From Candidatus Nanohalarchaeota archaeon (GTDB lineage Archaea; Nanohalarchaeota; Nanosalinia; Nanosalinales; Nanosalinaceae), in contig JALDAJ010000001.1 of the NCBI GenBank assembly GCA_022729235.1, positions 256,001 to 320,000 of the forward strand: a stretch of 64,000 nt of DNA, read 5' to 3'. Each line of letters opens with the position of its first letter. The first letter of the stretch is position 1. Shown one piece after another: positions 12,379 to 42,171 of the stretch. The notes under the pieces are model-generated. The model had not been told where the DNA came from. It saw only the letters and a list, made by a program, of their open reading frames with translations, and searched no databases. The position numbers were made by a program, and so were the translations under genes.

Positions 12379-12569
12379 GGGTCCGTAGCTCAGCCCGGAC
12401 AGAGCACTCGGCTTCTATTCCTCAAGTTCCCAGTAGGGAACGAGGACCGAGAAGACCGCAGGGTCTTCGAAACACACCTTCTCCCCGCGGAGAAGTGTGC
12501 TCGAACGGCTTTCGTCTCAAAGCCGTAGAAGACACCGAGATGTCGAGGGTTCAAATCCCTCCGGACTCG
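12379..12569 (+). tRNA. tRNA-Arg(UCU) with 116-nt intron at 37/38 (12418-12533)
   Basis: Acceptor GGGTCCG/CGGACTC, stem CTCGG/CCGAG; CTTC pairs with intron GAAG. Confidence 0.93.
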
Positions 12570-12643
12570 TTATTTTTACTCATTCCAGTAACTGCGTTGT
12601 GGTGTAAATCAGGGTTTAAGACCGCGATACCATATCACTGCTC

Positions 12644-12922
12644 ATGGGGATAATACTTGAAGGAGAACTGGTCAAGAGAAGGGACAGACAGCCTATATGC
12701 GGAGGATGTAAAGAAGCTGTGAATAAGCAGGCGACTGTATGCCAGAGCTGTGGTATAAGACTTTACACGGTGAAAGGTAAGGTGTTCCGGGCAACAGGAA
12801 CTTTATTCGGCGCAGTATATCTTACATACGGTATCGCACAGGCATCGGTAATTTCTACCCTACTAGGCTCCACATTCATGACAGTAGCTGTCTACAGCTA
12901 CTTCTTCAGACCGATGTTATAG
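12644..12922 (+). CDS. Zinc-ribbon membrane protein
   Basis: CGGC...CQSC followed by two hydrophobic helices. Confidence 0.7.
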   Translation: MGIILEGELVKRRDRQPICGGCKEAVNKQATVCQSCGIRLYTVKGKVFRATGTLFGAVYLTYGIAQASVISTLLGSTFMTVAVYSYFFRPML

Positions 12923-12963
12923 GGTTAGAATGATTAACTTTCTGAACATAACCTCTTTTAGAG

Positions 12964-13737
12964 ATGGAAACCAGCTCCCCTGAAGACGCTGACCTGATAG
13001 TCCAGAAGCTCCCGTGTGATAACGGTATCCACAGGAATCCGCGGAAAGGAACGCTGGACGCGCCGGAGAAGATACTGGAAGACTATGAGTTCGAAAGAAG
13101 TGTCCTCGTGGACGAGGTTTTCCCCGACGAGTTCTCACTGGAGAATACGCAGAGAAGAATCGAGGATAATACAGAGGAACTGATTGAGTATGGTAAGCCC
13201 CTACTTTCTATCGGCGGCGACCACTCCGTCTCCTACCCCGTTATCCGGGCATTGAAGCGGGAGTATCCGGACATGCAGCTGGTGTGGCTCGACTCCCACC
13301 TCGACCTAAAAGAGAAGGTCGACAATCATGTATCGCACGATGTCGTAGTGCGAGAACTGCTGGCAAGAGGTTTTTCGGAGGACGAGATATGGTTTGTCGG
13401 GATTACGAGAATCGATGACGACGAGGAAGAGTTCCTGGAAAAACACGACCTAAATATATATCGCAGCAGCGAGATAGAGGAATTCAAACGAGAGTTCAAA
13501 CCTGGCGAACAAACTGTGTACCTGTCGGTCGACATCGACGCGCTGGAGGAAGAGCTGGCTCCCGGAACAGGGTATCCCGACGGAGAACTGGGATTAGAGA
13601 CCGTAGAAAAGGTCATTGACATAGTTAATCCTACTCACGCAGACCTAGTAGAAGTAGCTCCTTCTCTTGATGAAAACGGCAAAACTATCGACAGCGCAAG
13701 AGACGTACTCTCCCAGATAGAAGACAGTCTTGGCTAA
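12964..13737 (+). CDS. Ureohydrolase (agmatinase/arginase family)
   Basis: GGDHS, DSHLD, SVDIDA, PGTGYP motifs. Confidence 0.9.
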   Translation: METSSPEDADLIVQKLPCDNGIHRNPRKGTLDAPEKILEDYEFERSVLVDEVFPDEFSLENTQRRIEDNTEELIEYGKPLLSIGGDHSVSYPVIRALKREYPDMQLVWLDSHLDLKEKVDNHVSHDVVVRELLARGFSEDEIWFVGITRIDDDEEEFLEKHDLNIYRSSEIEEFKREFKPGEQTVYLSVDIDALEEELAPGTGYPDGELGLETVEKVIDIVNPTHADLVEVAPSLDENGKTIDSARDVLSQIEDSLG

Positions 13738-14264
13738 AGCCTTTCCTGCAGGATTTCGAGAACCCGTGGTGCGTCCGACCTATCCACTACGAGATGAGTG
13801 TCTTCCCTGCAGGAGATAAGATGGTCTACGTTTATCCCTTCTGCAGCCAGGGAGGAAAGAATGAACTCGATAACTCCTGGCGTCTCCTCAAGCCTCACAG
13901 GGCTTACAAGAGTTACTAGTGACTGTTCTTCACCCTCGATCACATGAGTATAGCCATTCTCAGTCTTAGCCTTCACGACAGCATCCCTGTCTTCAGAGCT
14001 TTTCAACGCCTCAACGCCGTCCTCTATCTTCACCTCAGTTCTTTCAAGAACCTGTTCTACCCGCCCCCTTCTATCCGTCTGTACCTCAGATAGATAGTTT
14101 TCAAGGCGGGAAAGCGCAGCTTTTACTGCTTCAAAGCTGTCGATACCTTCATCCTCACATATCTTTCTGGCGAGAGCGCTGTAATTTACTACTCCCTGTG
14201 CCAGCGCCTCACGGAGGTACGGCTTCCTGGAAACGTAGAGTTCAACCTGAGATGCTACAGACAT
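13734..14264 (-). CDS. Archaeal ACT-domain amino-acid-binding regulator
   Basis: GVVNYSALAR N-terminal domain plus TPGVI...LAAEGINV ACT domain. Confidence 0.85.
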   Translation of the reverse strand: MSVASQVELYVSRKPYLREALAQGVVNYSALARKICEDEGIDSFEAVKAALSRLENYLSEVQTDRRGRVEQVLERTEVKIEDGVEALKSSEDRDAVVKAKTENGYTHVIEGEEQSLVTLVSPVRLEETPGVIEFILSSLAAEGINVDHLISCREDTHLVVDRSDAPRVLEILQERL

Positions 14265-39724: not shown

Positions 39725-39995
39725 ACATACCTCTTAACAAACCCCGAACTTAAATTTACACCTCCCCGGAGAAGAGACAAGAGAATCCAAAGACTATAGA
39801 AAGACTCCTACGCCCCCTCAGAACACATAACCAACCATTCAGTGCCCCGATAAGAAACAGGGTATCTCGAAAGGGCTAGCAACCTAGACGTACTTATATC
39901 CCATCGGAAACACGGTTGAGGGCTCTGAACCAATGGTTCAAAGTCCCAGTTGAGCACTGAACCCCGCCAAACTATCGTATCCTGAGCACACCTGG

Positions 39996-40982
39996 TTAGA
40001 GAACTTGCTTGTTATCTTCAGCAGATCGGTAGAGGCTCCGGATGTAGTGCATAGCTGCTAGAGCGTATTCGACTGCGACTTCCGGCTGAACATCCCACCT
40101 TTCCAGTGTCTTTGGGTTATAACCGTGACCGCCGCTCGGATTTCGCATTCCCCCGAGATAGTTGCCACCGTGAAGATGTCTCTTCATCGTCCAATTTTCT
40201 TTGTGTAGTTCTGTCGCGAGTTGACCTATACCTGAGGCGCTGCTATAGTTTCCGCTTGTACCATAGTCGTTTCCTATATCTCTTTGAAAATCTTCTACAG
40301 CTCTACCCGCTGCGGAAATAGAATTTCTTGGTGAGCTGTTGTGTTCAACTAAAGCAGTTGCTAGTTCATCTACATACTTGTCGTTCATATAAGCTACAAC
40401 ATCTTCACCAATCTGGTCTTCGATGAAAATACGAGCAGTAGCTTCGGATTTAAGAGCATCTTCCAACTCCTGGATGTACTCTTCGGATATTGGGCTATCC
40501 TTGGCAGAAACGGCGATGGTCCCGTTATCATTCTCAAGGAGATTCGAATAGGTTCCAAGCTTAATGAACTGCTTCTTTATCTTCTCTTCACTGATTCCTA
40601 AATCATACAGGACATCAACTTGTACCGCAGCACGATCTGGTTCATATCCCTTGGAAAGAAATGAGAGGAAGGCGATGAATGGTTTGTACCTTTGAAGATA
40701 CTTGTTTAGAATTACAAACCGCTGATCCGGAGACAGTTTCCTGACTTCCTCGGCTATATCAGAGTTTACTTCGAACCCGCTATCAACTTCTTGCATAAGG
40801 TTTAGTTCTTCCCCTAAGTGTATGACTGCCTTAGTATAGCGAGTTCCACAGTCGATGAACCGAGAAATTTCATCTCTTTCGAGTGGTCTTGGAGTCTGCG
40901 ATAGTCCAAATACAGCTTCCATCAATACCTCAGGGTTCACTACATTGGCCCGCAGAGATTGATGTACCTCCGACATGTTCAC
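39996..40982 (-). CDS. Winged-helix-like N-terminus plus C-terminal HEPN-like domain
   Basis: AGRAVED ... MRNPSGGH (Rx5H). Confidence 0.65.
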   Translation of the reverse strand: MNMSEVHQSLRANVVNPEVLMEAVFGLSQTPRPLERDEISRFIDCGTRYTKAVIHLGEELNLMQEVDSGFEVNSDIAEEVRKLSPDQRFVILNKYLQRYKPFIAFLSFLSKGYEPDRAAVQVDVLYDLGISEEKIKKQFIKLGTYSNLLENDNGTIAVSAKDSPISEEYIQELEDALKSEATARIFIEDQIGEDVVAYMNDKYVDELATALVEHNSSPRNSISAAGRAVEDFQRDIGNDYGTSGNYSSASGIGQLATELHKENWTMKRHLHGGNYLGGMRNPSGGHGYNPKTLERWDVQPEVAVEYALAAMHYIRSLYRSAEDNKQVL

Positions 40983-41695
40983 TCAGGCAGATGTTCTTCC
41001 AGTATCTCTAGCTTCTCCTTGAGCTCGGTTTTGTCTATGTCAGCGAGATCAACTTTAACGTTGATTTCGACATTTTCTCTCGTTTCGGACGAGGTTCTGC
41101 TAGGAACGTCAGGCGTTTTATCTCCCTCAGAACCTGTCGTCGGCTGTCCTTGTTGATCCAAGCTGTCGTTCTCTTCCTCTTCCGTCTCGTCTAGGGATAG
41201 ACTTAGTTCCAGTTTTCCGCCCTCACCGGCCTCAATCACACCAAGTTCCTCGAATATCCCGACAAAACGCTCGACCTTCTCAATATCCTCTTCGAAGTAT
41301 TCTTGCTTGCCAGCGACCTTTTTGGCTATCTCTGATCGAGTGTAATCCGAGTTCTTGTTAAGTAGATATACCACTTCGTTAAACAAGTCGTTCTCTTCCT
41401 GAAGCTGTTTGACTAGTTTTTTCTTTGCACGCCTCTCCATTTCCTCATTTGATGCGTTTTCGAGCGAAACTAGGAATTTCGGAGGAGAGTAGTACCCTGC
41501 TTTCTCTCTATGGATCAGTCCGATTTTCCAGAGCGCCTTGTAACAGGTGGATGCGTTCTGGGTGTTAATATCGTCGGCCGCGTCTTTGTAGTATACGGCT
41601 TCCTCACCCTCATAGGTAAAGCGCTCAATGAGATTTTCAAGTGCTTTCTTATGGAGTTCTGGAGAGAATCTCCCCGGCAAATCATCTCGTTCCAT
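40979..41695 (-). CDS. Tandem winged-helix-like hypothetical protein
   Basis: ALWKIGLI and FEELGVIE wHTH-like segments, acidic linker, VEINVKVDL strand; overlaps the downstream gene (GTGA). Confidence 0.6.
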   Translation of the reverse strand: MERDDLPGRFSPELHKKALENLIERFTYEGEEAVYYKDAADDINTQNASTCYKALWKIGLIHREKAGYYSPPKFLVSLENASNEEMERRAKKKLVKQLQEENDLFNEVVYLLNKNSDYTRSEIAKKVAGKQEYFEEDIEKVERFVGIFEELGVIEAGEGGKLELSLSLDETEEEENDSLDQQGQPTTGSEGDKTPDVPSRTSSETRENVEINVKVDLADIDKTELKEKLEILEEHLPE

Positions 41696-42037
41696 AAGTC
41701 ACATATTTAATAAAAAACTTTTTAAACTATTCTGTTATTCGCCGATTTTTAGTCAAATTGCAGAGATATTTTGTCACGAGGAGAAAATCCGGCAGGAGTT
41801 TCCGAGGGTATTACACCATAATACACAGCAAGCTTTAGATGAAGGAAATGATGACTAATAACTAACCAATATAAGCACAGTGTTCGCCTATCAAATACGA
41901 ATCAGCAGGCTGAGAAAGATATGATGTTGTATAATAGTACTATTTAAATGCTGAACACTAGATTTCTCTTGAAAATTCAAACGAAGCGAGGAGAACCGAG
42001 AAGAGCTTGAAAGAAAGGCTCTGAATGGACGAGAAGG

Positions 42038-42171
42038 CGCCCCCTCAGGGATTTGAACCCTGGATCTGCACCTATTTGCTTCGAAGATCAGAGATCTTCT
42101 CGGTCCCCGTTCTCCCGTTGGGAGAACTTGAGGCTCCGCAAGGTGCCGTCTTTCCACTAGACCAAGGGGGC
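42038..42171 (-). tRNA. tRNA-Arg(GCG) with 62-nt intron at 37/38 (42074-42135)
   Basis: Acceptor GCCCCCT/AGGGGGC, stem GCACC/GGTGC, A20; TTGC pairs with intron GCAA. Confidence 0.9.

Follow-up and report, generated by a model that had tools for sequence, protein, structure and literature searches.

How do introns that interrupt tRNA genes with different exons come to be built from the same pieces? The question is raised by a stretch of 64,000 nucleotides, called the window here, from the genome of a Candidatus Nanohalarchaeota archaeon (assembly GCA_022729235.1; bases 256001-320000 of the single contig of 1,027,595 bp). A preliminary description of the window had noticed modules common to the introns of its tRNA-Arg(UCU) and tRNA-Arg(GCG) genes, and had proposed that introns were transposed, or modules shuffled, between tRNA genes. 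The origin and spread of archaeal tRNA introns are unresolved, and the only well-described movement between genes is that of the Thermoproteales. In that order, the accessible text of two reports describes very similar introns of the bulge-helix-bulge (BHB) type in tRNA genes with unrelated bodies; the mechanism of transposition is thought to act on DNA, and the BHB requirement limits where copies persist (PMC4090602; 2026 bioRxiv preprint).

In this report, we compared the tRNA introns of this genome with one another and with those of relatives, and followed their components through the phylum. Our main finding is that a folded cassette of about 55 nucleotides recurs in the introns of seven different tRNAs, and that the resemblance between introns does not follow the relatedness of the tRNAs that carry them. 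The reading that we consider probable is that BHB introns are built of hairpin cassettes that are copied between tRNA genes; this would be a second, unrelated lineage with a reduced genome in which the phenomenon of the Thermoproteales occurs, and one where turnover is visible within a genus. Shared introns as such are already known. The occurrence of a cassette throughout a phylum, its recurrence in rRNA, RNase P and tRNA flanks, and its turnover within a genus appear to be new: we found no report of conserved intron cassettes in Nanohaloarchaeota, a search that would miss introns listed in the supplements of papers.

Canonical introns at position 37/38

Genes for tRNA were searched with Rfam and with ARAGORN. 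Run with its default, which disallows introns, ARAGORN returned no tRNA; run with introns allowed, it found 35 genes in the genome, 20 of them interrupted. The five tRNA genes that Rfam places in the window each have a long insertion in the anticodon loop. Two ARAGORN labels were corrected from the anticodon loops, namely Ala-UGC (called 'Cys') and Asn-GUU (called 'Ala', Ala-AGC).

All 20 introns, 30 to 203 nucleotides long, fit the canonical 37/38 site. Just before the last two bases of each intron lies a 4-mer that pairs with nucleotides 32-35 of the tRNA, through four pairs in 18 introns and through three in the other two. That each intron has its own 4-mer matched to its anticodon loop had already been remarked upon; the match is indeed present in all 20, but it is no special feature, as it is the standard central helix of the BHB. 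There is no continuous inner helix: the 5' bulge leads into a junction of several helices, which makes this the relaxed form of the motif. As far as sequence can tell, these are canonical archaeal introns, spliced by protein at position 37/38. The genome has one match to the splicing endonuclease family PF01974 (genome 616804-617085; 96.1 bits, in an open frame of 198 amino acids). Self-splicing introns of group I or II were considered and rejected, as no Rfam intron family has a match in the window; at E <= 1, the five window introns match no Rfam family of any kind.

A folded cassette in the introns of seven tRNAs

The tRNA-Arg(UCU) gene lies at 12379..12569 of the window, on the + strand (Rfam tRNA model, 46.8 bits; ARAGORN with introns; division into exons and intron), and its intron of 116 nucleotides occupies 12418..12533, coordinates that were derived by arithmetic from the exon lengths. 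The tRNA-Arg(GCG) gene lies at 42038..42171 on the - strand, with an intron of 62 nucleotides at 42074-42135. The two ends of the region given in the preliminary description, 12418 and 42135, are the first intron bases of these genes. The strings quoted in the preliminary description as common to these two introns are present verbatim, and correspond to a cassette of two hairpins, A and B, about 55 nucleotides long. It is found at 12420..12471 in the Arg-UCU intron (genome 268420-268471, + strand) and at 42080..42133 in the Arg-GCG intron (genome 298080-298133, - strand). As a trait of these two introns the modules are real, but not peculiar to them: the A+B cassette is also in five more tRNAs, so that its hosts in this genome are Arg-UCU, Arg-GCG, Arg-UCG, Gln-UUG, Leu-UAA, Thr-CGU and Lys-UUU, and related hairpins are found outside introns.

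A regular expression describing the full cassette has seven matches in the genome, all seven in tRNA introns; a looser expression returned mostly noise and was discarded. A covariance model, R1, built from the seven copies on a MAFFT seed alignment, gave seven matches at 55.7 to 72 bits (65.3 bits for Arg-UCU and 66.4 bits for Arg-GCG), the next best match in the genome being at 18.1 bits. Single short motifs are uninformative on the scale of the genome because the proteome is rich in Glu; it is an acidic one, long open reading frames having a median isoelectric point of 4.6 and an Asp+Glu content of 19.2%.

Part A of the cassette consists of a 4-bp helix, a bulge of two A residues and a variable hairpin. 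A linker of 5 nucleotides leads to part B, a hairpin with basal pairs GAAR/YUUC, flanked by A and G. The cassette starts 2-3 nucleotides past the 5' splice site in this genome, and up to about 5 nucleotides past it in relatives, and in the shortest introns the 4-mer of the BHB follows almost directly. Since the cassette starts just past the 5' splice site and the 4-mer stands near its end, the BHB helix, A and B are predicted to form a three-way junction.

Among the 56 best-scoring of 65 aligned copies, each of the first eight positions is identical in 50-56, and A-C-G and G-G-A on the 3' strands are kept in 49-56. Substitutions on both sides were seen in 16 of the 18 base pairs, with 139 compensated cells against 39 +/- 4.5 in shuffled alignments. 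In the alignment fitted to the structure of the model, a procedure that inflates paired counts, 95.9% of cells are paired; sliding the partners by 1-3 columns lowers this to 36-65%. The picture is no different in the MAFFT seed alignment, which is independent of that fit and has 95.2% of cells paired. A near-invariant core combined with compensating substitutions in the distal stems indicates that the cassette is constrained as a folded RNA, and the Arg-UCU copy shares in this covariation.

Intron similarity does not follow the exons

All 190 pairs of the 20 intron-bearing tRNAs were compared, using local similarity of introns from which the terminal BHB bases had been removed. Intron similarity and exon identity are uncorrelated (Spearman -0.07, Mantel p 0.73). 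In the 28 pairs that reach Z >= 5, median exon identity is 0.608, much the same as the 0.611 of all pairs. The most similar introns are those of Ala-UGC and Thr-GGU (Z 32.6), in which a core of about 60 bases is near-identical (roughly 56/60) while the exons align poorly (identity 0.64). The former is the gene located at 3730..3878 of the window (- strand, intron of 75 nucleotides at 3766-3840), between the 16S and 23S rRNA genes. High values were also obtained for Met-CAU and Asn (Z 25.9), and for Thr-CGU and Arg-UCG (Z 20.7).

The same tRNAs were then compared with those of a relative of the same genus, G001. Intron similarity was low for Arg-GCG (Z -1.4) and Asn (0.3), and modest for Gln (4.2), Lys-UUU (6.0) and Arg-UCU (6.3); Ile-UAU is the only same-tRNA pair of high similarity (Z 19.6). 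Copies in different genes of one genome are thus more alike than copies in the same gene of a sister species, which argues for recent copying or gene conversion. In the same relative, the A+B cassette is present in Gly-UCC and Leu-UAG, both of which are intronless in our genome, the Arg-UCU intron carries the sister cassette A'+B (see below) where ours has A+B, and a further intron family is common to Lys-CUU and Arg-GCG (Z 9.5). A complete relative, G018, has 34 of 35 tRNA matches of at most 89 nucleotides and a single gene of intron length, and gives no match to R1 or to R2, the model of the sister cassette; being nearly intronless, it indicates that introns are dispensable in this family. 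The transposition of introns, or shuffling of modules, that had been proposed for this window is thus supported, in that intron similarity does not track the exons. A separate observation in G001 is a locus, L208, with extra, tandem and uninterrupted Arg-UCG and Arg-UCU genes, whose bodies are unlike those of the interrupted copies; this pair may have been acquired horizontally.

Distribution across the phylum

R1 detected the cassette in 27 of 41 relatives and, at E <= 1e-4, in 40 of the 70 genomes of the phylum, with 0 to 8 copies per genome. Reading the anticodon loops upstream of the matches assigned 48 canonical loci to 16 different anticodons: Gln-UUG (9 loci), Lys-UUU (6), Arg-UCG and Leu-UAA (5 each), Arg-UCU, Leu-UAG, Gly-UCC and Ser-UGA (3 each), Arg-GCG, Lys-CUU and Cys-GCA (2 each), and Thr-CGU, Thr-UGU, Pro-UGG, Pro-CGG and Glu-UUC (1 each). 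All 48 are at the canonical site, as are the seven copies of our genome. Another 17 matches comprise one tandem duplicate of A within an intron, nine copies downstream of intact tRNAs, in trailers, each preceded by a T-loop-like string, and seven weak matches that could not be assigned. U34 is found in 40 of the 48 host loci, which are not independent of one another, against 14 of the 35 tRNAs of this genome. Loops that begin with C-U-U would accept the same 4-mer and make a copied intron spliceable at once; spread should accordingly be easiest among tRNAs with such loops, because the same 4-mer still pairs.

The matches listed in a pattern scan of contigs, meant to look beyond the phylum, were mostly attributable to chance; of the 80 loci fetched, two scored above 40 bits with R1, both apparently from nanohaloarchaea themselves. 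In viral contigs there was one match to the exact pattern; at 18.1 bits and lacking the B hairpin, it is a chance match.

Intron bodies combine a small set of modules

Downstream of A+B, the Arg-UCU intron contains a hairpin of the ACAC..GUGU type, module C (12472..12498; genome 268472-268498), a further hairpin, module D (12499..12527), and the 4-mer that provides the intron strand of the central BHB helix (12528..12531; all four pairs with nucleotides 32-35), all on the + strand. Module C had been reported from the Phe, Asn and Arg-UCU introns. It is present in all three, but it is loosely defined, and outside introns it is modestly above chance: a search for the hairpin found four intron loci (Met, Arg-UCU and Asn twice) and eight other loci, and 19 row-level matches against 7-13 in shuffled genomes. 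The Phe copy has an inner stem of only 4 bp, which is under the threshold of this search; it is located at 25072-25094 and opens the 44-nucleotide intron (25051-25094) of the tRNA-Phe(GAA) gene (25015..25132, - strand), where C stands alone. The tRNA-Asn(GUU) gene (29341..29525, - strand) has an intron of 112 nucleotides (29377-29488) that starts with one copy of C (29461-29487), followed by an opened B-type helix (29386-29456) that encloses two inner hairpins, namely one designated X and a second C (29400-29422).

The order of modules differs among introns of this genome and its relatives, as expected from the shuffling that had been proposed. A-B is found in seven introns here, including that of Arg-GCG, which has nothing else. 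A-B-C-D is shared by Arg-UCU here, Ser-UGA of G010 and Arg-UCG of G012. Glu-UUC of G010 has A-C-B, and Leu-UAA of G034 has A-C-X-B, whose X is also inside the Asn and Met introns of our genome; Arg-UCG of G005 has A-A-B, and Arg-UCU of G001 has A'-B-C. To judge from these arrangements, a few kinds of hairpin module, variously combined, make up the intron bodies.

Cassettes and hairpins outside introns

A strict search of the genome for compact B hairpins yielded 27 copies, against 0-2 in ten shuffles. By location, five belong to tRNA introns, eight to the leaders or trailers of tRNAs, two to the vicinity of rRNA genes and one to RNase P RNA; a further five are intergenic, and six fall in likely coding sequence. 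Genes of these three kinds of RNA and their flanks thus account for 16 of the 27, of which 15 are in the sense orientation. Of the intergenic copies, one adjoins the RNase Z gene, one is part of the 5' leader of a gene for a class II aminoacyl-tRNA synthetase, one separates the genes of the alpha and beta subunits of phenylalanyl-tRNA synthetase (PheRS), one separates those of ribosomal proteins L11 and L1, and one stands upstream of the L13 gene. Around copies at unannotated sites, Rfam finds no known RNA.

Three copies of the sister cassette A'+B, of about 58 nucleotides, are on the + strand of the window. One is upstream of the archaeal 16S rRNA gene (cassette 466..524, gene 554-2027) and one downstream of the 23S rRNA gene (cassette 7246..7303, gene 4280-7213), both supported by alignments and by the covariance model R2, built for this cassette, at 69 and 70.5 bits, respectively. 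The third (12026..12080; 68.6 bits) is an insertion, relative to the Rfam alignment, inside RNase P RNA (11625-12108), just upstream of the conserved ACAGAA near its 3' end. This RNA scores 79.8 bits with Rfam, under the gathering threshold of 84, because of several large insertions. The A'+B insertion is present in RNase P RNA of our genome, G001 and G011, and absent from that of G005 and G018. R2 has matches in 24 of 41 genomes searched, ours included; contexts that could be annotated are upstream of 16S (G003), downstream of 23S (G038), in tRNA introns (G008, G033, G038 and G040) and in tRNA flanks (G011 and G032). In a predicted cofold of the 23S flanks, the cassette branches off sideways, and its end coincides with the start of the 3' strand of the predicted long processing stem.

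Flanks of tRNA genes show a further peculiarity. In the trailer of tRNA-Ala(UGC), a B hairpin (3652..3668, - strand) is followed by a 16-nucleotide copy of the 3' end of this same tRNA. Repeats of a tRNA's own 3' end, of at least 10 nucleotides, occur within 260 nucleotides downstream of 13 of the 35 tRNAs, and repeats of the own 5' end, of at least 9 nucleotides, 47-107 nucleotides upstream of eight (examples are at 3640-3730 of the window and at genome 590490-590925, both on the - strand). The inserts of 50-110 nucleotides between such copies are rich in hairpins and often end in a B hairpin. By eye, the Ala-UGC and Gly-GCC trailers look homologous, and a pseudo T-arm with the cassette in its loop, together with a copy of the acceptor 3' strand, is also seen in other families of the phylum. 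As for RNase P RNA, relatives differ in their insertions, some of which, in its 5' part, include B-type hairpins.

How the introns may have spread

In the scenario that we favor, cassettes and whole introns would be copied between tRNA genes within a genome, with gain, loss and replacement on the time scale of a genus. The copying step would most likely act on DNA, with short shared sequences serving for recombination or gene conversion, and the same type of cassette would have landed in other parts of stable RNAs that are discarded or tolerant. The cassette could serve as an independently folding scaffold, or as a binding site for a protein, so that long insertions do no harm and the BHB can still form for the single-subunit endonuclease; alternatively, it could be a feature needed for the spread of the element itself.

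Two tyrosine recombinases are encoded in the genome. The gene of one (genome 862694-863212, - strand, open frame of 472 amino acids) is directly downstream of tRNA-Thr(GGU) (863906-864053), and an element may have integrated at this tRNA, whose intron is near-identical to that of Ala-UGC.

Several points weigh against copying between genes. Searches of the genome found neither a reverse transcriptase nor a Y1 transposase (PF01797). The Gln-UUG cassette, present in nine genomes, and the Lys-UUU cassette, present in six, look inherited, and the invariance of about 20 positions across the phylum would likewise be compatible with a function selected by the host, with vertical descent and losses; the paired counts that support the fold are, as said, inflated by the alignment. 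In five closed relatives, R2 has no match beside 16S or 23S at E <= 0.001, so a general role in rRNA processing is not supported. The relatives are mostly incomplete metagenome bins, and related genomes are not independent samples. Finally, the three sequencing runs listed for this DNA belong to one study of a soda-lake metagenome and are all of DNA, none of RNA.

A more far-reaching idea is suggested by the cassettes in rRNA flanks, RNase P RNA and tRNA leaders and trailers, which point to a new RNA-binding factor or a new mechanism of insertion. Tentatively, the cassette could be a signal specific to the phylum, with a dedicated partner, carried by RNAs of the endonuclease-ligase pathway and by translation mRNAs (its carriers being introns and flanks of tRNAs, processing stems of rRNA, RNase P RNA, and the genes of synthetases and RNase Z), or else the recognition element of a new, RNA-oriented mobile insertion that colonises genes of stable RNAs and creates BHB introns. 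We regard this as possible but would not count on it; if the mobile-insertion version were true, these archaea would offer a live system for watching the birth of archaeal tRNA introns. The cassette can be tracked by covariance model, and the near-intronless relatives are natural controls.

Alternative explanations

A first alternative is that the host selects the cassette as a cis-acting RNA element, where a single RNA-binding or processing factor would dock on stable-RNA precursors and a few translation mRNAs; it would be transmitted vertically, with repeated losses and no copying between genes. The core that does not vary across the phylum, the covarying stems and the recurrent Gln-UUG and Lys-UUU hosts all agree with this, as do the sense orientation near stable RNAs, the copies that adjoin the predicted processing stem of 23S or are inserted in RNase P RNA (three of the five genomes examined), and those at the class II synthetase, PheRS, RNase Z and L13 genes. 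However, the cassette is dispensable at every site examined. Moreover, vertical descent predicts that copies in the same tRNA of congeners should be the more alike, and it is copies in different tRNAs of one genome that are, by far. The key G of a kink-turn is kept in only 30 of 56 copies, and no partner protein was identified. We therefore hold this explanation to be rather unlikely.

The hairpins might instead be selfish palindromic repeats of DNA, moved by a transposase and surviving best in genes of non-coding RNA. Small palindromic repeats of this kind are the repetitive extragenic palindromic (REP) elements of bacteria and the miniature inverted-repeat transposable elements (MITEs) of archaea; those of the REP type have a cognate Y1 transposase (RAYT, REP-associated tyrosine transposase) and no preferred orientation. 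There are resemblances: the hairpins are short, present in many copies (about 27 for B, with about one expected), patchy between relatives and concentrated in transcribed non-coding DNA; the direct repeats of tRNA ends bracket their inserts as target duplications would; and a fragment of a DDE transposase adjoins one copy. Unlike REP elements and MITEs, they are biased towards the strand of the host RNA (15 of 16), the canonical intron copies all have one orientation and a fixed distance from the 5' splice site, and the genome has no Y1 or other cognate transposase that we could find. Their stems, in addition, conserve complementarity rather than sequence, and we find this origin quite improbable.

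Simple duplication of tRNA genes together with their introns would make intron similarity follow the relatedness of the bodies. One pair behaves in this way, Arg-UCU and Arg-UCG, whose exons are the most similar of all (0.87) and which both have A+B. Yet even their introns (Z 8.6) are less alike than those of Thr-CGU and Arg-UCG (Z 20.7); with the lack of correlation over all pairs, and hosts spanning 16 anticodons across the phylum, this explanation is very hard to maintain. Least credible of all is convergence, by which long introns would independently acquire similar shapes because all must adopt hairpin folds that do not obstruct the BHB, as the hairpin-rich Val-UAC, Thr-UGU, Ile-GAU and Asp introns, which belong to no family, could suggest: it does not explain why 56 copies should agree in about 20 bases and in their order, nor does it account for the near-identical core of Ala-UGC and Thr-GGU.

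Comparison with known systems

As in the Thermoproteales, related introns are found here in unrelated tRNA bodies, and intron and exon relationships disagree. To go by the accessible text of the reports on that order, there are three differences: many of its introns are at non-canonical sites, and the shared introns here are all at 37/38; its splicing endonuclease has two subunits, and this nanohaloarchaeon, of the DPANN type, has a single short endonuclease gene; and the unit shared here is a structured cassette, conserved through a phylum and recurring in rRNA flanks, RNase P RNA, and tRNA leaders and trailers. The accessible part of a further report states that disrupted tRNA genes are more numerous in DPANN lineages (PMC5829648).

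The A+B cassette is distributed over many different tRNAs. This sets it apart from the tRNA-Trp intron of Euryarchaeota, which carries a box C/D guide RNA; the two are alike in that a structured RNA resides inside a canonical intron, and the Trp and Met introns of our genome contain C-box-like strings. The consensus of the cassette contains neither a C box (RUGAUGA) nor a D box (CUGA), and no Rfam C/D family has a match in the window at E <= 1, so that a box C/D small RNA was rejected as its identity.

Kink-turn and k-junction motifs are bound by L7Ae, a subunit of archaeal RNase P and of RNA-guided modification complexes that is encoded in this genome. The cassette resembles them in its succession of a helix, about three unpaired nucleotides, G-A, a second helix and G-A at a three-way junction. 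In kink-turns the G of the first sheared pair is nearly invariant. Among the 56 best copies, the inner A is kept in 49 and the inner G in 48, but the outer G in only 30 and the outer A in 41: the topology fits, the key G is not kept, and the assignment was down-weighted.

Other features of the tRNA and rRNA genes

The 16S and 23S genes are separated by a spacer of 2.2 kb, in which tRNA-Ala(UGC) has the opposite orientation; each rRNA is therefore probably a transcription unit of its own.

The 35 tRNA genes form a reduced set that depends on U34 tRNAs; many C34 isoacceptors were undetected by ARAGORN, for example those of Gly, Val, Pro, Gln, Leu, Glu, Ala, Arg and Lys. A twenty-first gene, Gly-GCC (genome 41424-41560, - strand), is interrupted in a different manner, by what appears to be an insertion of about 58 nucleotides in the D-loop that contains no cassette and is bounded by a direct repeat of 9 nucleotides. 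The copy of the repeat proximal to the tRNA body is degenerate, which implies use of the distal 5' exon; G001 shows this odd 5' end as well.

The longest intron, the 203 nucleotides of Met-CAU (genome 92052-92328), and that of Trp, with 102 nucleotides (genome 921928-922103), have a common 3' segment, in addition to their C-box-like strings, and each contains one B hairpin. They may be guides of the box C/D type interrupted by cassettes.

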